Source: Bacillota bacterium (GTDB lineage Bacteria > Bacillota > SHA-98 > Ch115 > JABLXJ01). From it: DNA of 64,000 bases. Below the pieces are notes generated by a model. That model worked only from the letters and a program-made list of their open reading frames with translations. It did no database searches and was not told where the DNA came from. The position numbers and the translations under genes were made by a program. The stretch lies in NCBI GenBank assembly GCA_013178125.1, contig JABLXJ010000006.1:156631-220630 (forward strand), read 5' to 3'. Each line of letters starts with the position of its first letter. The stretch's first letter is position 1. This document shows positions 1-44,149 of this stretch, piece after piece.

Positions 1-3000
1 GAAGCCGGGCCCTGAGTTCCCCTGGGTCTCCCCCGCCTTTCATACCCGTCTTCCTACCTGAGGCGAGGGCTGCAAGACAGCGTGAGAGGTGGAATTCGTC
101 CCCGGGGTTCACAATGCATTTCAGAAAGGCCAGGGCTGCGCGAACGCCTCTATCCTCGAGGAAGCTCTCGCGCCCCACGATGCGATATGGGATGCCCTCC
201 TTCAGGAAGCATTCCTCCAGGACCTCGCCCTGGCGCCCCGTGCGGAAGAGGACGGCGATATCCGAGAAACTCCTGCTCACATCGCCCGCGCCCGCACCTG
301 GTCCCGCATTGCCCGAATCTGGAAGCCCGGCAGCCAGCCTCTCTGGCCCGGCTTCGTCCCGGAATTCGCCCCGGGCTTCGCCCTGCCGGCCACCGCCCTG
401 GCCGTGGGCCTGGAGCATGGTCGCGCCCCCGACCATACGCCCTATCTCCCTTACAATTGCAATCCCCTCGGCGATCTCCCCCGGGACTTCGATGTGGCGT
501 ATCCTGGGACCGTCGCCTCTGGCGGATTCGAGCTCGAACCCTGCGCAATCCCGGTTATGGGCTATGACCGCCGAGGCGGCCCGGAGGATCTGGGATGTCG
601 AACGGTAGTTCACTCTGAGCCTGTAAACGCTGGAACCGGGGAAATCCTCCTTGAGCCTGTCGAAAAACCTGTGATCTGACCCTCGGAACCCGTAGATCGC
701 CTGGTCCGGGTCTCCGATTACGAAGAGCCGGGTGCCGTCGCCCGCCCAGAGCTTCACGAGTTCATATTGAATGGGGTTTACATCCTGGAATTCGTCGACC
801 AGGAGGTGTGTGAAGCGGTCGAGCCACCCCTCCGGCAGGCTGGCTCCCGCCAGGCCGGTCTCCCGCCCGCCTTGCCGCAGCAGGCGCACGGCCTCGAGGA
901 GTATGTCGTCATAATCGAGGGCCATGTATCGGGCCAGCCTTTCCTGGTAAGCCTGATAGACTTGGGATATCTCCCCGCCCGGGGCGAGGGCCGCAGCATC
1001 GGATGGCCCGATGCCCCGGCCCTTCAGGAGCGAGATATATCTCTGAGCCTCCCTCGCGTTGATGCGCCTCCCGGTCCCGTACTCCCTCAGGGTCTCCTCG
1101 ATGACTGCCCGGGAATCGAATTCATCGAGGATAACCAGGGGTCCGGTGCGGCCCGTTGAAGCCTTGAGCATGTCCAGGCAGATACTGTGAAATGTCCCTA
1201 TGGTAATAGCTTCCAGACCGTCCATGCTATTGCCCGGGCCGACGCCATCAATTCTGTGGCCGTTATTAATATTAATACTGTTGACGATGTCCCTGACACG
1301 CGTCCGCATCTCGCCGGCGGCCTTATTGGTGAATGTGACGGCCGTGATCTGCCCGGGGTCCACGCCGCGTTCCTTGATCAGATAGACAATGCGGTGGGCA
1401 AGGGTGCGGGTCTTGCCGGTGCCTGGGCCGGCGATCACAATGATGGGGCCGGATCCTGCCGTGACTACCTCGCGCTGGTCACGGTTGAGCCCGGCAGCCG
1501 CACCCACCAAGGCTTCGTGGGAAGGGGCGGGTGCCGTGGTCGGGGCTGGTGCATGAGCCGCAATCCTGGCTGAAGCATCCAGGGTTGCGGCTGCATCGAC
1601 TGCATCGGTTGCACCGGCCGTGGCGGGCGCATCGGCTATAGCACTTGCCCTGGTTGCAGCGATTGCAGGGGCCGCTGAAGCGGTAGTGGCGGCAGGCTCG
1701 GCAAGGAAGCCCGATTCAGCTAAAAACGAACCAGAAGGCGAGCTCGATGGCAGGAAACCGAACAGGCTGCCCTGCCCCTGCAGGCGCCGCCTATCCTCCT
1801 CGCGCATTATCACGATGCTGCCGTACTCGCCGTCGAACCCGGGCTTGATCTCGACCTCGCCCGCCCTGACCCTCCGGATCGCCTCGGCTACGGCCGGGCC
1901 GGCTATGGACCTTACATCCTCGATAGAGGACTCCCTCAGGACCGTAAGCTCGGGGCCGAGGGCTCGTATGAGCGCCAGGTATTGCTCGCGCACCTGCTTC
2001 GAGGACTCGCCGACGCCGATGGCCGAGGCGATAACCTGCCCGAGGGGCACCAGGCTCTCGAAGTGCCGCGCAGCCGGGGGGGGCGCCCCCTCGGGCCTGT
2101 CGGCGAGCTCCTCGACCCTGTGAAGGACCCCAACCGTGACCCCCCGGCCGCACGCGGGGCAGATCCCACCCGCCGCCCGGGTCTGGGATGGCTTCCACCG
2201 GACCCCGCACCCCCTGTGCCCATCATAGTGGTATTTCCCCTCCTCGGGGAAGAATTCCAGGGTCCCGATGAACCGCGCGGGATCGCGATCTCGGAGGGCC
2301 TCGCGTATGGCGTCGAAGGATAACCCGGTATCGAAGATATTCGCCTCGCGGGCGAGGTTGGCCGGGGAATGGGCATCAGAATTGGAAACCAGCGCGAAGC
2401 GGTCGAGCGCCGAGAAACGCCAGTTCATCGGCGGGTCCGATGAAAGGCCGGTCTCCACGGCATAGATGTGTCCGGTGAGGTCGTCGAAGCACTCCTCGAT
2501 CGCGTCGAATCCCGAGTTCGCGCCGAAGAGCGAGAAATGGGGGGTCCAGATGTGAGCCGGTATGAATAGAGCCTCTGGGCACGCCTCCAGGGTCATCTCC
2601 AGGAGGATGCGGCTATCGAGCCCCAGGATCGGCCGCCCGTCTGAGTGTATATTGCCCACCTGTTCTAGGCGGCTGCTCAGCGCGTCTGCCGCCTCGAAAC
2701 TTGGGAGGAGGATGAGGTGGTGAATCTTGCGGGTTCTCCCGGCCTTCTTATAGATGGTGCTGATCTCGCCGGCGAGGACGAATCTGACCTGGGCCCCGCC
2801 CAGCCAGGGGATGCCATCGGCGGCCCGGCGGCCGGCAGCATCCAAGAATTCATCCTTCAGCTTGTAAGTCCCGTAGCCATCCGGAGCGGGCTCCAATTTT
2901 TGACGCAGCTCCTCCCGCCACCCGGGGTGGGTGAAATCCCCCGTGCCTACTAGCGTGAGCCCTTTGTATGCCGCCCAGCGGTGGAGTTCCTCAGGGGTGC

Positions 3001-3061
3001 AGTCCCCGCTCGTAGCCCTTGAATAACGCGAGTGGATGTGTAAATCAGCAATAAACCTCAT
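1..3061 (-). CDS. Endonuclease-Q-like PHP/zinc-ribbon nuclease fused in frame to a UvrD/PcrA-family SF1 DNA helicase. Partial: the C-terminus lies beyond the window start.
   Basis: Hand translation of the minus strand from an ATG at ~3059-3061 gives MRFIADLHIHSRYSRATSGDC...CPVCGRGVTVGVLHRVEEL...GFDGEYGSIVIM. Over its first ~420 aa this is ~80% identical to the standalone EndoQ-like ORF at 8129..9391. The frame then stays open through an Ala/Thr-rich linker into helicase motif I (GPIIVIAGPGTGKTRTLAHRI), Ia (TFTNKAAGEMRTRV), II (LLVDEFQDVNPIQYELV), III (VIGDPDQAIYGFRG), IV (VNYRSTSQIL) and an IAVLFRTGRQGEVLEE...GIPYRIVG motif. Both the nuclease start and the Walker-A codons are in the same frame (high coordinate = 1 mod 3). 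The ORF is absent from the track only because it has no stop inside the window; the other two minus frames hold the short track ORFs. Its start overlaps the DUF763 stop (ATGA). Confidence 0.72.
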   Translation of the reverse strand, partial: MRFIADLHIHSRYSRATSGDCTPEELHRWAAYKGLTLVGTGDFTHPGWREELRQKLEPAPDGYGTYKLKDEFLDAAGRRAADGIPWLGGAQVRFVLAGEISTIYKKAGRTRKIHHLILLPSFEAADALSSRLEQVGNIHSDGRPILGLDSRILLEMTLEACPEALFIPAHIWTPHFSLFGANSGFDAIEECFDDLTGHIYAVETGLSSDPPMNWRFSALDRFALVSNSDAHSPANLAREANIFDTGLSFDAIREALRDRDPARFIGTLEFFPEEGKYHYDGHRGCGVRWKPSQTRAAGGICPACGRGVTVGVLHRVEELADRPEGAPPPAARHFESLVPLGQVIASAIGVGESSKQVREQYLALIRALGPELTVLRESSIEDVRSIAGPAVAEAIRRVRAGEVEIKPGFDGEYGSIVIMREEDRRRLQGQGSLFGFLPSSSPSGSFLAESGFLAEPAATTASAAPAIAATRASAIADAPATAGATDAVDAAATLDASARIAAHAPAPTTAPAPSHEALVGAAAGLNRDQREVVTAGSGPIIVIAGPGTGKTRTLAHRIVYLIKERGVDPGQITAVTFTNKAAGEMRTRVRDIVNSININNGHRIDGVGPGNSMDGLEAITIGTFHSICLDMLKASTGRTGPLVILDEFDSRAVIEETLREYGTGRRINAREAQRYISLLKGRGIGPSDAAALAPGGEISQVYQAYQERLARYMALDYDDILLEAVRLLRQGGRETGLAGASLPEGWLDRFTHLLVDEFQDVNPIQYELVKLWAGDGTRLFVIGDPDQAIYGFRGSDHRFFDRLKEDFPGSSVYRLRVNYRSTSQILRAASAVIAHNRDCAGFELESARGDGPRIRHIEVPGEIAEGIAIVREIGRMVGGATMLQAHGQGGGRQGEARGEFRDEAGPERLAAGLPDSGNAGPGAGAGDVSRSFSDIAVLFRTGRQGEVLEECFLKEGIPYRIVGRESFLEDRGVRAALAFLKCIVNPGDEFHLSRCLAALASGRKTGMKGGGDPGELRARL
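2135..2274. repeat. Near-identical nucleotide segment shared between the two EndoQ-like paralogs (copy 1)
   Basis: About 140 nt are almost identical to 8462..8601 (e.g. gtctgggatggcttccaccggaccccgcaccccctgtgcccatcatagtggtatt...gaagaattccagggtcccgatgaacc). Flanking parts of the genes are only ~75% identical. Confidence 0.6.
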
Positions 3062-4155
3062 GAATTGCTTGATCCCTCCCTGGCCTCGCCCCTCCAGGCC
3101 GCAAGCCGCCTGAGCGCTTTCAACTTATCTGTCTGGCCCAGCCTGGCCCTGCGCAGGGCGTCCTCGAGGACCTGGATGGACCTGTCGTAGCTGGCCCGGT
3201 TAACGGGGAATGGGTGGCCGTCCTTGCCGCCATGTGCGAAGGAATACCTGACAGGGTCCCTGCGGCTCGCCCTGGCGCCATAGGTCACCTCGGCGACCAT
3301 GGCCAGCGCCCTGATAGTGGCCGGGCCGACGCCGGGGGTGGAGAGGAGCGTCTCGAAGTCCTCGGGCTGGCGTTCATACGCCGCCCGTAAGGCCTTCGCG
3401 AGCCTGGCTGTCCCGGGGATGGCGTGTGCGGAGGGGAGGCTCAACACCTTTCCCGCCTCTTCGAGGATCACGCCCGTTTCCACCCTGGCCAAAAGGGTTG
3501 AAGCTTCGCGGGCCTTATCGCTCTCGGCGGCCACCATATTGAGGACCTCGCCGGCGTGGATGCGATCGGACGAGATGCCCGCGTGCGGCTCGCAGACGAA
3601 GCTGAAATCCCCCAAGGTCTGACCGATCCAGTGATAGCGCCTGGCCCAGCCCGTCCTATCGTTCATGCCCTGCTGGACCACGGCCCAGCTGCCGTCCGCC
3701 GTAAAAACAAACAGGTGATGGTATATATCATACCCATCCTGGAGCGCTGCGGAGTCCACCTTGGCGGCCATCCTGCTCGCATACTGCAGATTGACGAGCG
3801 CTGAGGGGAGGCCATGCCTCTCGCACGCATCTGCGATCTCCAGGGGCGTCTTCCGGGAGGTTGCGCCCTTGCCGCCTGCGAAAAAGATGCCGAGATCGCC
3901 CTCGCGGGCGCGCAATCCCTCCTTGAGCGCCCCGCAGACAGTGGTCGTGATGCCGGATGAGTGCCAGTCGAAGCCAAGGACGCACCCGAGCGCCTGGAAC
4001 CACACAGGGTCGGAGAGGCGCTGCAAGACCTCCCGGGGACCGAATTCCTCCACGATAATCTCGATTATCGCGGCCCCCAGCAGCTTCATCCGGGAAAAGA
4101 GCCATGCAGGGCACTTGCCGGAGTGGAGGGGCAGGTTTGCCGTACCGCTTCTCAT
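3058..4155 (-). CDS. DUF763-family protein carrying a helix-hairpin-helix DNA-binding motif
   Basis: 365-aa track ORF. I recognise the sequence as DUF763 (PF05559), and a recognisable HhH motif LLSTPGVGPATIRALAMV is present. A GGGGGAG RBS lies ~9 nt upstream, and the stop overlaps the start of the EndoQ::UvrD fusion. Confidence 0.55.
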   Translation of the reverse strand: MRSGTANLPLHSGKCPAWLFSRMKLLGAAIIEIIVEEFGPREVLQRLSDPVWFQALGCVLGFDWHSSGITTTVCGALKEGLRAREGDLGIFFAGGKGATSRKTPLEIADACERHGLPSALVNLQYASRMAAKVDSAALQDGYDIYHHLFVFTADGSWAVVQQGMNDRTGWARRYHWIGQTLGDFSFVCEPHAGISSDRIHAGEVLNMVAAESDKAREASTLLARVETGVILEEAGKVLSLPSAHAIPGTARLAKALRAAYERQPEDFETLLSTPGVGPATIRALAMVAEVTYGARASRRDPVRYSFAHGGKDGHPFPVNRASYDRSIQVLEDALRRARLGQTDKLKALRRLAAWRGEAREGSSNS

Positions 4156-4219
4156 GTCGGGTCGCTCCCCCTTTCATCAACGAGCATACCACAAGATGGC
4201 ATGATGGACAATGATCAGC

Positions 4220-7376: not shown

Positions 7377-8090
7377 ATGGTTTCTGAAATAAATCCGGGG
7401 ACGGGGGGAAATGGCGAGGGGGATAAGCGCCGACCCGGTCCTGTCGAGCGGTTTCTCACCATCATGATCGACCCTGCAGGGACATTCAAGGATATAGTCG
7501 AGCGCCCGGACTTCGCGATCCCTGTTGTCCTGGCGGTCCTCACGGCGCTTCTGGGAATTCCCGTCGCGATGCATTCGGTCAAGAACCTGCCCCCGCAGCC
7601 CGGCGTGCCGCCAGCTCTGATGAGCCCCGCCGTTGCCGGGGGCATCGCGGCCGTATCAGCCCTCGTGATGCTCCTCATCTGGTGGCCGGTGCGGGCGCTC
7701 ATATTCATGGGCCTCGGCGCCGCGCTCGGTTCGCGCGTTGATTTCAAGAAGAGCCTCGCGGTGGCGGGCTATCTCAATTACTCCGCGTTTATCTCGTCGC
7801 TGATCTCGGCCATAACCATGCTCGCCCTGGGATCCCCCGTGATGCCCGGCCTCGGAATGGGGCTATCGCCGGAGCAGCTTGCGACGCCCAGGGGGGTATT
7901 GCTCTCCAATCTGAATATAGGCTCTCTTATCTACATCTATCTGAGCATATTCGGCCTCTCCGAGCTGTGGAGGACGTCCCGTGCACGGGCCCTGGCGGCC
8001 ACCGTGATAATGTGGGCGCTTGTCCTCGCGGCGAGCGCCGGCCTGGCAAAGCTGGGGGAGAGCTTCCGCGGGTTGGTCCCGAGGCAATGA
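7377..8090 (+). CDS. Yip1-family integral membrane protein
   Basis: 237 aa with five hydrophobic segments after a soluble N-terminus; the pattern resembles the Yip1/DUF1282 family. Confidence 0.5.
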   Translation: MVSEINPGTGGNGEGDKRRPGPVERFLTIMIDPAGTFKDIVERPDFAIPVVLAVLTALLGIPVAMHSVKNLPPQPGVPPALMSPAVAGGIAAVSALVMLLIWWPVRALIFMGLGAALGSRVDFKKSLAVAGYLNYSAFISSLISAITMLALGSPVMPGLGMGLSPEQLATPRGVLLSNLNIGSLIYIYLSIFGLSELWRTSRARALAATVIMWALVLAASAGLAKLGESFRGLVPRQ

Positions 8091-8128
8091 AAATGAAGGT
8101 GGAAAGGTAAAGGTGAAGCGTAAAGCGG

Positions 8129-9391
8129 TTATATAATCTCGATCTTACCATACTCACCATCGAAGCCGGGGGTGATATTGACCTCGCCCGCCCTCACCCG
8201 CCGGACGGCCTCGGCTATCTCCGGGCCGGCGACGCGCGCCAGGTCATCGATGGCGATGTCGCGCAGGATCGAAAGCTCTGGACCGAGCTCCCTGAGCATG
8301 GCGTAGTAGCGTGCCTGGACCTTTTTAGTCGATTCGCCGACCCCCAAGGCGGAGGCGATGACCTCAGATAGGGGTATGAGGCTCTCGAAGTGCCGCGCAG
8401 CCGGGGGCGTCGCCCCCTCGGGCCTGTCGGCGAGCTCCTCGACCCGGTGGAGGACCCCGACCGTGACCCTCCGGCCGCACACGGGGCATATCCCGCCCGC
8501 CGCCCGGGTCTGGGATGGCTTCCACCGGACCCCGCACCCCCTGTGCCCATCATAGTGGTATTTTCCCTCCTCGGGGAAGAATTCCAGGGTCCCGATGAAC
8601 CCATCCGGATCGCGTCTCCGGAGCGCCTCCCTTATAGCGGTATAGGATAGCTCCGTATCAAAGATGTTGGCCTCGCGGGCCAACTTGCGCGGTGAGTGAG
8701 CATCGGAATTCGATGTGAGGGTAAACCGGTCGAGCGCTGAAAGCCGCCAGTTCATCGGCGGGTCCGATGAAAGGCCGGTCTCAACCGTGCAGATGTATTC
8801 GACCAGGTCCCCGTAACACTCGTCGATCCTGTCAAATCCAGAGTGGGCGCCAAACACCGAGAAATGGGGCGTCCAGATGTGAGCCGGTATGAATAAAGCC
8901 TCCGGGCATATATCAAGGGTCATTTGAAGGAGTTCGCGGCTATCGAGCCCCAGGATCGGCCGGCCGTCGGAGCGGAGGTTCCCGATCCCGTCCAGGCGCC
9001 GGCTCAATTCATCTGCGGCATCGAAGCTAGGCAGGAGTATGAGGTTGTGAATCTTGCGGGTCCTCCCGGCCTTCTTGTATATGGTGCTGATCTCGCCCGA
9101 GAGCATGAATCTGACCTGTACCCCACCCAGCCAGGGGATCCCCTCGGCAGAGGCTTCATCCACGACTGCCCTGCGAAATTCATCCTTGAGCAGGTAGGTT
9201 CCATCGCCGTCCTCGGCGGATTCCAGCTTCTGCCTGAGCTCTTCCCGCCACGCAGGATGGGTGAAATCCCCCGTACCAACGAGGGCGACCCCCTTGTAAG
9301 CCGCCCAGCGGTAGAGCCCCTCAGGCACGCAATCCTTGCTTGTAGCCCGTGAGTAGTGTGAATGAATGTGTAGATCGGCGATGAACCTCAT
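8129..9391 (-). CDS. Endonuclease Q-like protein (PHP-like N-terminal nuclease fold plus C-terminal zinc ribbon), standalone paralog
   Basis: 420 aa beginning MRFIADLHIHSHYSRATS with a ...CPVCGRRVTVGVLHRVEEL zinc ribbon. It is a paralog of the N-terminal part of the ORF at 1..3061. Confidence 0.7.
   Translation of the reverse strand: MRFIADLHIHSHYSRATSKDCVPEGLYRWAAYKGVALVGTGDFTHPAWREELRQKLESAEDGDGTYLLKDEFRRAVVDEASAEGIPWLGGVQVRFMLSGEISTIYKKAGRTRKIHNLILLPSFDAADELSRRLDGIGNLRSDGRPILGLDSRELLQMTLDICPEALFIPAHIWTPHFSVFGAHSGFDRIDECYGDLVEYICTVETGLSSDPPMNWRLSALDRFTLTSNSDAHSPRKLAREANIFDTELSYTAIREALRRRDPDGFIGTLEFFPEEGKYHYDGHRGCGVRWKPSQTRAAGGICPVCGRRVTVGVLHRVEELADRPEGATPPAARHFESLIPLSEVIASALGVGESTKKVQARYYAMLRELGPELSILRDIAIDDLARVAGPEIAEAVRRVRAGEVNITPGFDGEYGKIEII
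8462..8601. repeat. Near-identical nucleotide segment shared between the two EndoQ-like paralogs (copy 2)
   Basis: See 2135..2274. The mosaic identity suggests gene conversion. Confidence 0.6.
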
Positions 9392-9600: not shown

Positions 9601-10869
9601 CTATAAGCACTTATCCAGCGCCGCCACAATCTCGTCCCTCACCCGCGCATCACCCTCTCTCCGATAACGCTCCTCGAGAGACCTCCTGCCCCTGGCCCCG
9701 CCAATGACCCCCAGCGACCAGGCAGCATGCCCCCGGATTACAGGCCTCGGATCATCCAGGCAGGCCTCCAAAACCGGGATCGCCAGGTCCACGGCGTGAT
9801 CGTCCATCAAGTTCCCCAGGGCGATTACGGCGTTGCGCTGCAGGATCGTCCTCCCTCTCCAGCCTGCTGCCGTAAGGCCATATGCCTCCTTGAATCTGGA
9901 GTTAGACACGGCTAAAACATCCAGGAGATCAGGGGCCACATCATCCCAACTCCGGGGCCGGAAGGCTGCAAGCCCGGCGGGGGCAACCCTCTTATTCCTC
10001 GGACAGACCTCCTGGCACGTATCGCACCCGTAAAGGCGGAACCCCATCTTCGGACGCATATCACGCGGTACAAAACCCCGCATCTGCGTGATATATGAAA
10101 GACATATGTTTGCATTGGTAACATAGGGACTGCGCGGGTCCAGGGCGCCCGTGGGACATGCCCTGAGACATATGTCGCACTCGCCACACCCATAACCGCC
10201 GTGCTCGTCGCGCCCACCTGTCGCTGGCACGGGAGAGCCGGGCCCGGTCGAGGGGGTATCAGGCTCGAGCTCCAGGTCCGTCAGGATCTCGCCAAGGAAA
10301 ACCCAGGAACCGTACCTTTGCGTGAATATGCTGCAGTTCTTTCCATACCAGCCCGTTCCCGCCCGCTGGGCTATAGCCCTATCTACCAGGGGGCCTGTAT
10401 CAACAAAACTTGCGAGCCGCACGGCCCGTGGAGCATTCTGGGCGAGGAAATCGCCGAGCCGCCGGAGGATATCCCTCACAACAACGTGATAATCTTTGCC
10501 CCACGCAGACATAGATATCCGCCCCTTCAGCTTCCCGCGCAGCTCCTCCCCGCCGCGACCAGGCTCCTTCTTACCCGGATCAGGCTCCTGCTCCTGCTTA
10601 GATGGGATCGCACCCAGAGGCGTGGCATATGGCACGGCAACGGCGATAATCGATCGCGTCCCGGGCATGACCCTACCTGGATCGCACCTCAGCTCTATAT
10701 CCTGTTCCTCGAATGGGGATCGATGGCCATCCCTCTCCCGTTCTCTCAATACCCTCTCCAGGTGCATGAAGGGCGAAGCGTCGGCAACCCCCACGATCTC
10801 AACGCCTATCGATCTCGCGAATTCCTTCAGCTTGTCCTTTAAAGGTATATAATTGAGGGCCAACTTCAC
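9601..10869 (-). CDS. queG: Epoxyqueuosine reductase QueG (4Fe-4S, cobalamin-dependent) with C-terminal HEAT-like repeats
   Basis: Contains DYH...VDTGP...GTGWYGKN motifs, two CxxCxxC...CP ferredoxin-type motifs and C-terminal HEAT-like repeats. Confidence 0.8.
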   Translation of the reverse strand: MKLALNYIPLKDKLKEFARSIGVEIVGVADASPFMHLERVLRERERDGHRSPFEEQDIELRCDPGRVMPGTRSIIAVAVPYATPLGAIPSKQEQEPDPGKKEPGRGGEELRGKLKGRISMSAWGKDYHVVVRDILRRLGDFLAQNAPRAVRLASFVDTGPLVDRAIAQRAGTGWYGKNCSIFTQRYGSWVFLGEILTDLELEPDTPSTGPGSPVPATGGRDEHGGYGCGECDICLRACPTGALDPRSPYVTNANICLSYITQMRGFVPRDMRPKMGFRLYGCDTCQEVCPRNKRVAPAGLAAFRPRSWDDVAPDLLDVLAVSNSRFKEAYGLTAAGWRGRTILQRNAVIALGNLMDDHAVDLAIPVLEACLDDPRPVIRGHAAWSLGVIGGARGRRSLEERYRREGDARVRDEIVAALDKCL

Positions 10870-11235
10870 GATTACCCTTCCCTCTCTTTCCCGTTCCCAG
10901 TTCCAATGCCGGCATCAAACCGCCGGACCGGGTCGAGCTTATTACTTCGCGATCATGCCATTTCAACGAGCGAGAGCGCCATCTCAAATGGTAACCCTCT
11001 TATCCAGGGGCGTCAACCCAGAAGGCGTCAACATGTAATAATTAGCCTTAGAAGGAATCGGGGGCCTGGATGTAGAAGAAATTTATGGCCGCATATTTAA
11101 CAGGCTCTGCGAATTTCTATTATGTGCAGCTCTACATTGATAACCTTAAATTGTTTGAAGGTCCTCTGCGGAATTGGTCGTTCTAGTTGGCGCCCGGGTT
11201 ACATATTTTTAGGACATGGCCAAGTTTTAGAAAGG

Positions 11236-11307
11236 GGGAGGAACCGTGCTGGAGTTGATTGGTCTCGTGGTCGTTGTATGGTTTATCATCCACCTGCTCG
11301 AGAAGAA
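11236..11307 (+). CDS. Possible 23-aa hydrophobic micro-protein (VLELIGLVVVVWFIIHLLEKNIK)
   Basis: GTG start 5 nt after a strong SD (AAAGGGGGAGG); a single TM-like peptide followed ~60 nt later by an intrinsic terminator. Speculative. Confidence 0.25.
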
Positions 11308-11368
11308 TATAAAATAAGGCGCAAACCGCAACCAGTCCGGACCGGAGAGGGACCGGACATTTGCTCAC

Positions 11369-11395
11369 GAGGGAGGCATTAAGCCTCCCTTTTTC
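11369..11395 (+). terminator. Rho-independent terminator (GGGAGGC-ATTAA-GCCTCCC followed by TTTTT)
   Basis: Perfect 7-bp GC stem, 5-nt loop and T5 tract within the AT-rich island. Confidence 0.45.
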
Positions 11396-11737
11396 GCCTT
11401 GCCGTTGCTCCCTCGCAGCGTGACCGGGGACGGCGCCGCCCTGGCGCGGCGCAAAGTAAACTGCAGCTGGAGGGATTTTCGGGGACAATCAAGAGGATTT
11501 CCATAGATGGATAGCGAATGATTTAGCGTAACATAGCCTGCATAGGAAACACTCGGGAGTAGTCCGCAGAGTATCCATAGGGAGTAACCCGGGGAAGCGA
11601 TAGAAGAGATAAAGGGAATCGTAGATAAAAAAAGAAACCATAGATTAGGTATAGAATAGGATAGATAGATCATGAATGGCCTGGGCGACCTGTCCTTGAA
11701 TACACCTCAAAGGTCAGAGGATGAGGGGGAGCGATGA

Positions 11738-12589
11738 GTGAAACCGATTCGCATAGTGACCGATAGCACCGCCTATCTACCCAAGGGCTGGCTGGAAGAC
11801 CATGGAGTGGCGGTTGTTCCCTTGCTGGTAAATATGAATTCCTCAACATACAGGGAGGGCTTCGATATCTCGAATAGCGAGTTTTACGCCAGGCTCAGGC
11901 AAGCCAAGGAGCCTCCCACGACATCCCAGCCGTCCGCCGGCGAATTCCTGGAGACATATAAGCATCTCATCGACGCCGGCGCGCAGACGATCATCTCGAT
12001 CCACATATCCGGCGGTATCAGCGGCACCGTCAATTCAGCCCAGGGTGCCGCTGGGATGCTCAGGGATGCCGATATCACCGTGATCGACTCGAGATCCACC
12101 GGCCCCGCCCTCGGCTTCATTGTCCAGGAAGCCGTGGCGCTCGTCGAGGCTGGCGCAGGCAAGGATGCCATCATGAAGCGGCTGGATTACCTCATCGACC
12201 ATATGCGCACGCTTTTCGTCGTAACGGACCTGATGTATCTCCACAAGGGCGGGCGCCTATCCGGCGCGCAGGCCATAATAGGGTCGATCCTGCAGATCAA
12301 ACCCGTCCTCCACTTCACCGGCGGGCGCATCGAGGTCCTGGAAAAGGTCAGGACCGAACGCCGCGCGCTCGAAAGGATAACAGATTTGATGCAGGCCGAG
12401 GGCGCCGGGGGCAGGCTCCCGACGCGACTTACTATCGCATACGCAGATAACCGGGATAAGGCAGATGGGGTCAGAAGAAGCCTTTTGGAACGGTTCCCCG
12501 GCCTCCAGGTCGAGAACGTTGAAATCGGCCCGGTCATTGCAACCCATGTGGGCCCGGGGCTCATTGGATTCCAGTTTTACTACGGCTAA
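11738..12589 (+). CDS. DegV-family fatty-acid-binding protein
   Basis: 283 aa beginning IRIVTDSTAYLP...; shows the DegV/EDD fold signature. Confidence 0.85.
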   Translation: MKPIRIVTDSTAYLPKGWLEDHGVAVVPLLVNMNSSTYREGFDISNSEFYARLRQAKEPPTTSQPSAGEFLETYKHLIDAGAQTIISIHISGGISGTVNSAQGAAGMLRDADITVIDSRSTGPALGFIVQEAVALVEAGAGKDAIMKRLDYLIDHMRTLFVVTDLMYLHKGGRLSGAQAIIGSILQIKPVLHFTGGRIEVLEKVRTERRALERITDLMQAEGAGGRLPTRLTIAYADNRDKADGVRRSLLERFPGLQVENVEIGPVIATHVGPGLIGFQFYYG

Positions 12590-12783
12590 GCTAAGTGTAA
12601 ACTCGAAGATTACCGCCACTTTTCCAGGAGTTACGGTGCTTGCGCGACGGGGCCTTTGAAATTTGGCAAGGCCCTCGCGCCAAATTTCAACGGAGGCGCG
12701 CCGCAAGCGCGCCGTCCCCGGAGCGCAACACCGTAAGTCCTGGGACGTGCTGGTAAAACTGGCATAAATTAAGGAACCTGCAC

Positions 12784-13899
12784 TTAGAATAGGATCTTCT
12801 GCCTCCTCATATAGACATTCAAAACGATGCCGATTGCAATGAGATCGGCGAGCATGGCGCTACCCCCATAGCTCAAAAAGGGAAGCGGTATCCCCGTCAC
12901 CGGCATGACGCTCATCGTCATGCCGATGTTTATCAACACGTGGAACAGCAACATCGAAGCCACCCCGGCGGCGAGCAGGGAGCCATACTTGTCCTTTGCT
13001 TGCCAGGAGGCCTGTAAGCAGCGCCAGATGATGAAGAGGTAAACCAGGAGAACGATGACTGCCCCGATGAATCCCAGTTCCTCGCCGACGACCGAAAAAA
13101 TAAAGTCCGTATGGTGGGCGGGAAGAAAATTGAGCTTGGCCTGCGTGCCCCCGAAGAGCCCCTTGCCGAAGAGCCGGCCTGAGCCAATCGCGATGGTCGA
13201 CTGGATGACATTATATCCATCCCCCATCGGGTCCCGGTATGGGTTGAGGAAGATCAATAGCCTGGCCCGCTGGTAGGGTTTTAAGAGGAAGAAGTATATA
13301 AAAGGTGAGAGAGCGCCTGTCCCTGCGGCTATCACAGCCAGGTCCCGCGTCCTGGCGCCGGCTATGTAGACCATGCCCAGGACGATGGCCGCAAACACCA
13401 GGACGGTCCCGAGATCGTTCTGCAATAGGATCAATGCCATGGGGATGCCCGCGTGGATGAAGGGGGGAATCAACCCTAGAAACGTATCGATATCATCCCT
13501 TTTCGCCAGGTGATCCGCCAGGGTTATTATCACGGCCACCTTGGCAAGCTCCGATGGTTGCAGAGCCAACGGCCCCAGCCTGAACCAGCTCTGGGCGCCC
13601 GAGACCCTTTGCCCTGCAATGAGGACGGCAGCCAGCAGCGCAATATTCCCGAGGTAGATTGGATTCCTTATGCGCTCGAGAAGCCGGTAATCGGTGCTGA
13701 GCATAAAGAGGACAGCCAGCACCCCCAGCACTGCCGCGAGCGCCTGCCTCTTCACAAAATAGAAGGGGTCTCCGAGGTTTTCGCCCCTGTTAGCACAGGT
13801 CGCGCTGTATATTATGATGATGCCGAAAACCACCAACGCGAGCGTGGCACATAATAGCCCATAATCGATGTTCTTTGCAAGACGCCTGTCAATTAGCAT
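12784..13899 (-). CDS. rodA: Rod shape-determining SEDS glycosyltransferase RodA (FtsW/RodA family)
   Basis: 371-aa polytopic membrane protein with FtsW/RodA motifs, located immediately after minCDE as in Clostridia. Confidence 0.85.
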   Translation of the reverse strand: MLIDRRLAKNIDYGLLCATLALVVFGIIIIYSATCANRGENLGDPFYFVKRQALAAVLGVLAVLFMLSTDYRLLERIRNPIYLGNIALLAAVLIAGQRVSGAQSWFRLGPLALQPSELAKVAVIITLADHLAKRDDIDTFLGLIPPFIHAGIPMALILLQNDLGTVLVFAAIVLGMVYIAGARTRDLAVIAAGTGALSPFIYFFLLKPYQRARLLIFLNPYRDPMGDGYNVIQSTIAIGSGRLFGKGLFGGTQAKLNFLPAHHTDFIFSVVGEELGFIGAVIVLLVYLFIIWRCLQASWQAKDKYGSLLAAGVASMLLFHVLINIGMTMSVMPVTGIPLPFLSYGGSAMLADLIAIGIVLNVYMRRQKILF

Positions 13900-43294: not shown

Positions 43295-44149
43295 TCAACT
43301 CACTATGTCAACAAAACGCCCCCCGCGCCCCGCGAGGCAGAGGGCAACCTCATCAAAGAGGGCCGCCGGTGCTTCGCCTCTAGCCCCGGGATCACCTCCG
43401 CCACTGGCCGGCCCGGGAATTTCACCACCCAGGTCAGCCCGGATGTAGGCGACCGTTCGTCCCTGCATCTCGTGAAGCCTGTGGGCATCGGAGGATGCTA
43501 TCAATGGGAAATCCCGGACCCATGGAAACCTCCTGCAGGCTTCCTCCCTGGAGATATGGGGCGAAAGCTCGAGCGCGGCTACAGGGAGACCCGGCGGGAC
43601 GAATCCGAGGTTTCTGATGAGGCTGTATGAGGGCCTGTCGATGTGCGCAGGAATCGGCAAGCCACCCAGCTCCCGCACCTTCCTCACGACCTCGGCCAGG
43701 GATAAGTCCGTCGAGGTCAGGAGGAGCCTGGAACACTTCCCGGTGACCTCGCCCTCCTCGCCGAGAATCAGCTGCTCACCGAGAAACTCCTCCCTATTCA
43801 GCTCAGCTGGGAGGTGCGCGTAAACCTCCTCCTGCCAGGTAATGAGCCCTTCGATGCTGCCAAAAAAGGTCAATACATGAATCTCCTCCAGCGTCTGGAC
43901 CTCCATCCCCGGCAGGACGCAAACACCATGCCTGGCCCCGGCCCGGAGGCAGGCGATGGCGTTTTCAGCTGAATTGTGATCTGCTATCCCAACCAGCTTG
44001 ATGCCTTTCCTGCAGGCCTCCTCCATAATGGCTGCCGGCGTCATCTCAGATTCAGCACAGGGCGAGAGCGCGGTGTGGATATGCAGGTCCGCCCGCAGGC
44101 ACTCCAGGCCCGAGTCCAAACCCCCTAGACCCCTTAGGTCCCCTGGCAT
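43295..44149 (-). CDS. PHP-domain (polymerase/histidinol-phosphatase) metallophosphoesterase, HfsC-like
   Basis: Contains ADLHIHTALSPCAE...IADHNSAEN histidine motifs. Confidence 0.75.
   Translation of the reverse strand: MPGDLRGLGGLDSGLECLRADLHIHTALSPCAESEMTPAAIMEEACRKGIKLVGIADHNSAENAIACLRAGARHGVCVLPGMEVQTLEEIHVLTFFGSIEGLITWQEEVYAHLPAELNREEFLGEQLILGEEGEVTGKCSRLLLTSTDLSLAEVVRKVRELGGLPIPAHIDRPSYSLIRNLGFVPPGLPVAALELSPHISREEACRRFPWVRDFPLIASSDAHRLHEMQGRTVAYIRADLGGEIPGPASGGGDPGARGEAPAALFDEVALCLAGRGGRFVDIVS

Follow-up and report, generated by a model that had tools for sequence, protein, structure and literature searches.

An EndoQ–UvrD fusion with two putative clamp-binding motifs, encoded beside DUF763 in a Bacillota bacterium, as a candidate nick-and-unwind DNA-repair enzyme

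A 64,000-nucleotide stretch of DNA from a Bacillota bacterium (GTDB lineage Bacteria; Bacillota; SHA-98; Ch115; JABLXJ01; assembly GCA_013178125.1, contig JABLXJ010000006.1, positions 156,631 to 220,630), here called the window, begins with two overlapping genes on the minus strand, the strand on which all features described below lie. One is a DUF763 gene (3058..4155), listed among the open reading frames with 365 amino acids (aa) plus stop; the other, immediately downstream, is a gene (1..3061) that fuses an endonuclease Q (EndoQ) nuclease to a UvrD-family helicase and runs off the start of the window after the first 1020 of its 1265 codons. The stop codon of DUF763 (TGA, 3060-3058) and the start codon of the fusion gene (ATG, 3061-3059) share the tetranucleotide ATGA at 3058..3061, and a Shine-Dalgarno-like GGGAGGG lies at 3080-3074, 12 nt 5' of the fusion start. 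We read DUF763 and the fusion as a translationally coupled, chromosomal pair of DNA-repair genes, a reading to which we assign a probability of about 0.55.

An original prediction made on this DNA had proposed the overlap, the nuclease and its uninterrupted continuation into the helicase, and all three are borne out. The fusion frame is open for 1020 codons from 3061 to base 2, and the C-terminus of the helicase was recovered from protein record P0452 (an NCBI metagenome-assembled genome, MAG; 240-kb contig), which is 1265 aa long, 100% identical over the part in the window, and recorded as 'UvrD-helicase domain-containing protein [Firmicutes bacterium]'. The DUF763 protein has a 100% identical NCBI MAG record as well (P0121), and its exact look-up returned one 6-kb Logan contig, an independent assembly with identical sequence; exact look-up of full-length P0452 returned no record.

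Residues 1-428 of the fusion (1778..3061) comprise a PHP nuclease, a zinc-binding domain and, C-terminally, a helical domain. They match the whole core of Pyrococcus EndoQ (PfuEndoQ structures 5zb8 and 7k30; E about 4e-47, phmmer) and the family model TIGR00375 (E=4.5e-50), in agreement with the predicted EndoQ-like PHP/zinc-ribbon nuclease of ~420 aa. In PfuEndoQ, metal is bound by H8, H10, E76, H84, H139 and D193, with H195 nearby, and the lesion pocket is lined by H139, T142, E167, L168, G169, L170, N191 and D193, with W144 as the wedge (PMC5961232). All metal ligands are present in the fusion, as H8, H10, E99, H114, H170 and D229 (plus H231), and are invariant in 14 fusions; five were placed by alignment to PfuEndoQ, and E99 was assigned as the counterpart of Glu76 by the invariant GEISTIY motif, the pairwise alignment stopping short of it. 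Pocket residues H170, T173, E203, G205, L206, N227 and D229 are kept, and Pfu L168, a main-chain contact, is replaced by Thr204. The zinc-binding site (H282, C285, C301 and C304; 2147..2218), aligned to Pfu C249/C252/C268/C271, has His282 where the archaeal C4 site begins with a Cys; its four residues are also invariant in 14 fusions, and an H-C3 zinc site is plausible. Because the ligands and almost all pocket residues are retained, the fused EndoQ domain looks catalytically competent.

A low-complexity Ala/Ser/Pro/Thr linker (aa 435-520; 1502..1759) of 86 aa (30 Ala, 10 Ser, 9 Pro, 8 Thr), weakly conserved and 30-110 aa long in relatives, leads into a helicase of the UvrD/PcrA family in superfamily 1 (SF1), the N-terminal ~500 aa of which (aa 521-1020; 2..1501) lie in the window. 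Both helicase profiles are matched well above their cut-offs: PF00580 (UvrD-helicase) at aa 525-808 with 236 bits (7e-70; cut-off 23), and PF13361 (UvrD_C) at aa 931-1000 with 64.7 bits (1e-17; cut-off 25.6), the latter reaching 141.6 bits in a full-length relative. The SF1 motif set had been described as complete. Within the window it runs from Q to IV, namely Q, I (AGPGTGKT; Walker A, 1409-1432), Ia, II (VDEFQD; 782-799), III (GDPDQAIYGFRG; 680-715) and IV (599-613), and motifs V (TLHAAKGLEFPVVFIAG) and VI (RRLFYVGMTRA) are found only in P0452, past the window edge. Between motif IV and 'VLFRT' there is also a Gly/Ala-rich low-complexity insertion (aa 868-934; window about 270-460), which is shorter in the nearest relative; most other aligned sequences end before this region.

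The two enzymatic parts are accompanied by two predicted contacts to the sliding clamp. Directly after the EndoQ core, QGSLF (aa 430-434; 1760..1774) forms an internal beta-clamp-binding-like motif at the position occupied in archaeal EndoQ by the PCNA-interacting peptide (PIP) box, which follows right after the core and is accompanied by stimulation through PCNA (PMC4858679, PMC5961232); beta-clamp motifs at the C-termini of bacterial EndoQ homologues have been noted before (PMC4858679). Among fusions, Qxx[LMFI][FL] occurs exactly 15 aa past the conserved DGEYG in 54 of 76 (4% expected by chance), and a C-terminal clamp motif such as QLSLF, QMSLF or QLKLF lies within the last 14 aa of 64 of the 69 complete proteins (1.6% by chance), the window organism's own fusion (P0452) ending in ...GTQLSLFAD. 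The standalone bacterial EndoQs that adjoin DUF763 end in QMSLF or QLKLF. The fusion thus looks like an EndoQ whose C-terminal clamp motif went internal when a helicase with a terminal motif was appended. Two such motifs would fit the two pockets of the DnaN dimer, and the protein is probably a clamp-tethered repair enzyme.

The architecture is common. A metagenome scan yielded 80 loci, with complete open reading frames of 968-1214 aa, and in all 80 EndoQ and UvrD share one continuous frame; a protein search with the 1020-aa query listed 120 full-length relatives, about 1100-1300 aa long and 47-72% identical, whose many sources include complete genomes; every one of these proteins combines an EndoQ-type domain (PF27218, 'MJ0043_C') with UvrD-helicase and UvrD_C. 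They occur in the cultured Moorella/Neomoorella species thermoacetica, glycerini, mulderi and humiferrea, in cultured Calderihabitans maritimus, Pelotomaculum terephthalicicum, Lucifera butyrica and Methylomusa anaerophila, and in many MAGs of Clostridia or labelled Chloroflexota; an earlier search with a 440-aa EndoQ query had also found a partial fusion in a Gemmatimonadota MAG. Most source names are generic ('UvrD-helicase domain-containing protein', 'ATP-dependent DNA helicase PcrA', '...Rep', 'Polymerase/histidinol phosphatase-like'); one reads 'Endonuclease Q, cleaves 5' to damaged DNA bases / ATP-dependent DNA helicase UvrD/PcrA-like', so that the architecture is recognised by at least one annotation pipeline. 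Full-text literature searches (EndoQ with UvrD or helicase, PHP-UvrD fusions, YqxK/TIGR00375) returned no paper describing or testing the fusion. The claim that the architecture is uncharacterised is supported for the searchable literature, but in the databases the architecture is common and already annotated, which in part bears out one of the outcomes that the prediction itself had named as refuting it.

The same data settle whether the fusion could be a sequencing or assembly artefact, in which a lost stop or a frameshift had run two genes together. Numerous database entries, 490-760 aa long, do look truncated or frameshifted after the helicase N-domain, and one organism carries the gene split into 695 and 281 aa, but the continuous frame in independent metagenome loci, the 120 full-length proteins and the identical sequence in an independent Logan assembly have already refuted the artefact for the family, and we give it next to no probability. 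Short fusions were considered as a distinct architecture and rejected: the 440-aa query had listed none above 757 aa and missed a 1210-aa orthologue, and by the search with the 1020-aa query the short entries are fragments or frameshifts. The split gene (10001-12945 of the locus in GCA_048305895.1, with the same layout in two further loci) is cut at helicase motif III into a 695-aa product, identical on 23 contigs, and a 281-aa UvrD_C gene; it may be a genuine split or a degenerate helicase.

The upstream partner is a typical member of a large and barely described family. The window protein matches PF05559 over profile positions 1-319 of 319 (424 bits, cut-off 35.5; E=4.6e-127), and DUF763 was found in at least 596 species genomes in a GTDB scan, with 2958 clusters at 50% identity (E below 1e-3). 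Identity exceeds 50% to members from many bacterial phyla and is 37-40% to archaeal ones (Thermoplasmatota, Mancarchaeum). All sources annotate the protein as DUF763 or hypothetical, and a literature search for DUF763, COG1415 and PF05559 returned one domain survey from 2005. A helix-hairpin-helix (HhH) motif had been read in the protein, and a single candidate motif, LLSTPGVGPATIRAL, lies at aa 270-284 (3304..3348). At this site the window protein itself is sub-threshold (HHH_5, E=0.087, 13.8 bits, cut-off 27), whereas a homologue (P0136) exceeds the Pfam HHH cut-off at the same position (26.2 bits, cut-off 24), and G275, G277 and R282 are nearly invariant in 64 DUF763 sequences. A confident AlphaFold model built on the 64-sequence alignment (pLDDT 82, pTM 0.82) has an alpha/beta N-terminal part and a helical part that contains the HhH (helices 267-271 and 278-292). 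We read DUF763 as a putative HhH nucleic-acid-binding protein. The most conserved motif of the family, DPxxYSFAHGGKDGxPFPV, falls in a low-confidence loop of the model; the idea that DUF763 is a ligase was set aside by reasoning alone, as the invariant 'GGKDG' misfits the KxDG motif of nucleotidyl-transferases.

What ties DUF763 to repair is the company it keeps. The pair and its 4-bp overlap recur in two loci, one in a MAG of the nearest species (GCA_012839815, with an 87% identical DUF763 and a fusion of 1210 aa) and the other on a biogas-metagenome contig; the two genes have stayed together even though the neighbouring macB block has been inverted and has gained three inserted genes. Of 80 DUF763 loci sampled in species genomes, five, all from Thermodesulfobacteriota/Syntrophobacterales, have a standalone EndoQ gene directly downstream of DUF763 at gaps of 8-220 bp, and a sixth has one 1.8 kb away. 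PolX adjoins DUF763 in six loci, of which five come from Actinomycetota MAGs and one from an Omnitrophota single-amplified genome; it is directly downstream in four, and four of the Actinomycetota loci have the order PCMT (protein-isoaspartate methyltransferase), DUF763, PolX and Nth (endonuclease III). In the archaeon Cuniculiplasma (two loci, one at L173 5001-11098 and the other L174), the gene directly downstream of DUF763 encodes an Lhr-type helicase of more than 1700 aa. Among the 79 immediate same-strand neighbours of DUF763, PolX and EndoQ are the commonest families. A repair role for DUF763 is made plausible by its repeated, independent placement beside enzymes that nick DNA at damaged bases or act on such nicks.

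Further neighbourhoods can be described more briefly. In Neomoorella thermoacetica (7414-9089 of loci L009/L010), DUF763 follows by 27 bp a macro-domain gene (O-acetyl-ADP-ribose deacetylase-like), itself directly after dnaB, and the same genomes carry the fusion elsewhere. The six PolX loci are L042, L045, L049, L051, L079 and L080, and two PolX copies sometimes flank DUF763. A Thermoplasmatota locus (L175) has the same upstream synteny as Cuniculiplasma (Rpb7, Spt4, S24e, S27e, DUF2175) without Lhr. The two loci from the related MAG and the biogas contig (L006/L007, 9594-14827) share 99.96% identity over the stretch that starts 407 bp upstream of DUF763 and reaches the contig end, and upstream of it they are completely different; the break may stem from a rearrangement between strains or from a chimeric contig, and because of this ambiguity we draw no claim of mobility for the module from it.

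Taken together, the domains, the retained residues and the motifs make it likely that the fusion is a DNA-repair enzyme, and we think the odds slightly favour the following nick-and-unwind mechanism, which fits the data best, as the original prediction had it. The EndoQ domain would recognise a deaminated or abasic nucleotide (deoxyuridine, dU; deoxyinosine, dI; deoxyxanthosine, dX; or an abasic, AP, site) and incise the strand directly 5' of it, so that a 3'-OH remains and the damaged nucleotide carries a 5'-phosphate. Enrichment of YqxK, the EndoQ homologue of B. subtilis, on abasic DNA (PMC10220248) speaks for such a role. The UvrD/PcrA-type motor, flexibly tethered, would load at this nick, translocate 3'-to-5' on the undamaged strand and displace the strand whose 5' end bears the lesion, much as UvrD does at nicks made by MutH/MutL or UvrC, whereupon a polymerase would extend from the 3'-OH and a ligase would seal. 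DnaN might recruit or stimulate the enzyme through QGSLF and QLSLF, as PCNA does for archaeal EndoQ, and DUF763 would assist at, bind or process the nicked lesion intermediate. Participation of DUF763 in repair with the fusion is, in our estimate, somewhat short of an even chance. Doubtful, if attractive, is the bolder proposal that DUF763 is a new-fold DNA-repair enzyme acting after or with EndoQ, EndoQ-UvrD, PolX/Nth and Lhr; it is possible that it removes or processes the 5' lesion-bearing end left by EndoQ.

Several observations weigh against reading the two genes as a nick-and-unwind repair pair, some concerning the fused enzyme and others its partner. The EndoQ domain scores 171 bits with TIGR00375, under the curated cut-off of 326.6 (other bacterial members score 160-196), and by these scores it is a divergent bacterial branch of the EndoQ family; the wedge Trp144 of PfuEndoQ is replaced by His175, which is invariant among fusions. 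The best NCBIfam model for the helicase is PcrA, yet full-length fusions stay far under its equivalog cut-off (348-562 bits vs 911), as they do under those of UvrD (267-407 vs 1144) and Rep (321-441 vs 951): judged by these cut-offs, the helicase is a distinct branch and no orthologue of PcrA, UvrD or Rep, so the database names 'PcrA' and 'Rep' are over-annotations and, for fusions of 1100-1300 aa, misleading. With neither set of cut-offs reached, the enzyme could depart from the archetypes in its substrate range and in how the helicase behaves. The enzyme might accordingly be clamp-associated without serving mainly in the repair of deaminated bases, acting instead as a PcrA-like accessory motor at forks (on AP sites, ribonucleotides, stalled forks or R-loops). 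This would suit a helicase nearest to PcrA, a gene near the origin region in some lineages, and a bacterial EndoQ clade that falls under the TIGR00375 cut-off and differs in its wedge residue, as well as the finding that YqxK, the B. subtilis EndoQ homologue, was enriched by capture on abasic DNA, dU not being tested (PMC10220248). We hold it to be unlikely, since the pocket residues defined in PfuEndoQ are almost all retained and preliminary data speak for activity of B. subtilis EndoQ on damaged bases (PMC4357722). The pair had also been proposed as a phage-defence module, which in its explicit form would be a nuclease-helicase system attacking uracil-containing or modified phage DNA; nuclease-helicase fusions are indeed frequent among defence systems, and the PADLOC models of GajB and of a DRT-associated helicase do hit the UvrD part. 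These matches are generic to the UvrD domain, however: the EndoQ domain was left uncovered by the matches among the best 25 of 52, DUF763 had none, and no GajA or other defence partner is found among the genes adjoining the fusion (window 1-10.9 kb). IMG/VR viral contigs (two scans) and PHROGs yielded neither protein, the neighbours are housekeeping genes (among them efflux pump genes, queG, dnaN and gyrB), the conserved clamp motifs point towards the host replisome, and the family has spread vertically in Moorellales and related Clostridia. Defence is therefore very improbable, and we have dropped that part of the proposal.

The remaining difficulty for a nick-and-unwind repair pair concerns DUF763 as the partner of the fusion, a role that the pair's survival in the nearest species and the other repair neighbours favour and that the other fusion loci do not. 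DUF763 lies within 6 kb of the fusion in none of 80 other fusion loci, no EndoQ is near DUF763 in 74 of the 80 DUF763 loci, and homologues of 83% and 58-61% identity adjoin no fusion; in M. thermoacetica, where both genes occur, they are unlinked, the 8 kb around DUF763 containing no EndoQ, and Calderihabitans maritimus carries the two apparently on separate contigs. DUF763 neighbourhoods are mostly heterogeneous and made up of unrelated genes (PRTase, PCMT, methyltransferases, the archaeal ribosomal/Spt4 synteny, thiamine genes), and searches of PDB structures with the DUF763 model matched no solved structure and gave no functional clue. Because close homologues occur away from the fusion, the pairing in the window is evolutionarily recent and confined to a narrow lineage. 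All this would be accounted for if the fusion were a repair enzyme and DUF763 functionally unrelated to it, the two being housekeeping genes recently juxtaposed in one lineage, and we regard this as a serious possibility, though well under even odds. It sits less easily with a pair and 4-bp overlap that survive local rearrangement, with the operon-like DUF763-EndoQ adjacency that arose independently in another phylum, with the further independent adjacencies to PolX/Nth and Lhr, and with the presence of a putative HhH motif.

The setting of the fusion gene differs among lineages. In 10 of the 80 metagenome loci (e.g., L119, L127, L129 and L132) it is divergent from dnaN and gyrB in the origin region, in 8 a thymidylate-synthase-like gene lies upstream, and in 5 there are two RdgC-like genes; these neighbours could hint at a link to dUTP/uracil metabolism and replication. 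The neighbourhood is variable, of a housekeeping type, chromosomal and outside defence islands. In the window, the fusion is preceded on its strand by an HlyD-type membrane-fusion gene, then macB, then DUF763, with queG near; further along, genes identified up to 10.9 kb encode MacB, the HlyD-type fusion protein, Yip1, a standalone EndoQ and QueG; in a related MAG, min/mre genes lie beyond queG. A consensus scan of the macB–DUF763–fusion intervals found no promoter and no terminator. By eye, candidate expression signals for DUF763 can be made out at 4164..4211, with TTGTCC at 4211-4206 and TGgTATGCT at 4191-4183 (17-nt spacing) followed by AAAGGGGGAG as ribosome-binding site (RBS) at 4173-4164, and it is possible that DUF763 has its own promoter and RBS, the promoter match lying under the scanner threshold.

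The standalone EndoQ paralogue (420 aa; 8129..9391) lies 5 kb from the fusion and outside the operon. It is 78% identical to the fused EndoQ, has all core motifs and ends in ...GEYGKIEII without a clamp motif; because the related MAG carries the same paralogue (P0001), the duplication is older than the split of the two species. A weak match to the N-terminal PHP motif of EndoQ at 43973-44092 (40% over 40 aa, E=5e-4) probably marks a further PHP-domain protein. Positions 1-4000 have the highest G+C of the window (0.64 vs 0.53-0.62 elsewhere), which is partly due to the Ala-rich linker and might in addition mean that DUF763 and the fusion arrived recently as a pair.

Present understanding of repair begun by EndoQ ends at the nick, and the fusion suggests an answer to what follows, namely clamp-coupled, nick-directed strand removal. 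In bacteria this post-nick question can now be put to the test with one recombinant protein, for example from cultured Moorella thermoacetica. DUF763, for its part, gains a first functional lead from its recurrence beside repair genes, though most of its neighbourhoods are unrelated; were it truly a repair enzyme, it would form with the clamp-tethered fusion a compact, self-contained alternative excision-repair pathway.

Set against known systems, the fusion shares with endonuclease Q (PfuEndoQ and TkoEndoQ, Bacillus YqxK) the three-domain core, the metal ligands, most of the lesion pocket and a predicted clamp motif right after the core. It differs in about 840 added residues (the linker, a complete UvrD-type helicase and a second clamp motif), in an H-C-C-C zinc site for C4 and His for the Trp144 wedge, and in carrying a beta-clamp motif where archaeal EndoQ has a PIP box. 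With UvrD, PcrA and Rep it shares the family and motifs of SF1A 3'-5' helicases. In E. coli mismatch repair (MutHLS) and nucleotide excision repair (UvrABC), an endonuclease makes a strand-specific nick and a helicase removes the damaged strand; the logic proposed for the fusion is the same, except that here the nickase is covalently attached and predicted to recognise the lesion itself, and that the protein has a C-terminal clamp motif. In AddA and RecB, too, one polypeptide unites a nuclease with a motor of the UvrD family, and their profile hidden Markov models match the fusion weakly through its helicase part, but the nuclease of the fusion is an N-terminal PHP/EndoQ domain in place of a C-terminal PD-(D/E)XK domain, a predicted lesion nickase and not a double-strand-end processor, and has no AddB, RecC or RecD partner. 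The UvrD-like domain is also what the fusion has in common with GajB of Gabija and other defence helicases, as the PADLOC matches reflect; lacking GajA or another defence partner and a defence island, and having clamp motifs, it is not a member of these systems. The parts of the fusion are thus of known kinds, and their covalent EndoQ-UvrD combination with dual clamp motifs is widespread and generically annotated. DUF763 is the more unusual element, with no solved structural relative, extreme conservation and recurring but far from universal links to repair; the window protein is a typical full-length member of the family (PF05559, COG1415), set apart by its predicted translational coupling to an EndoQ-UvrD gene.

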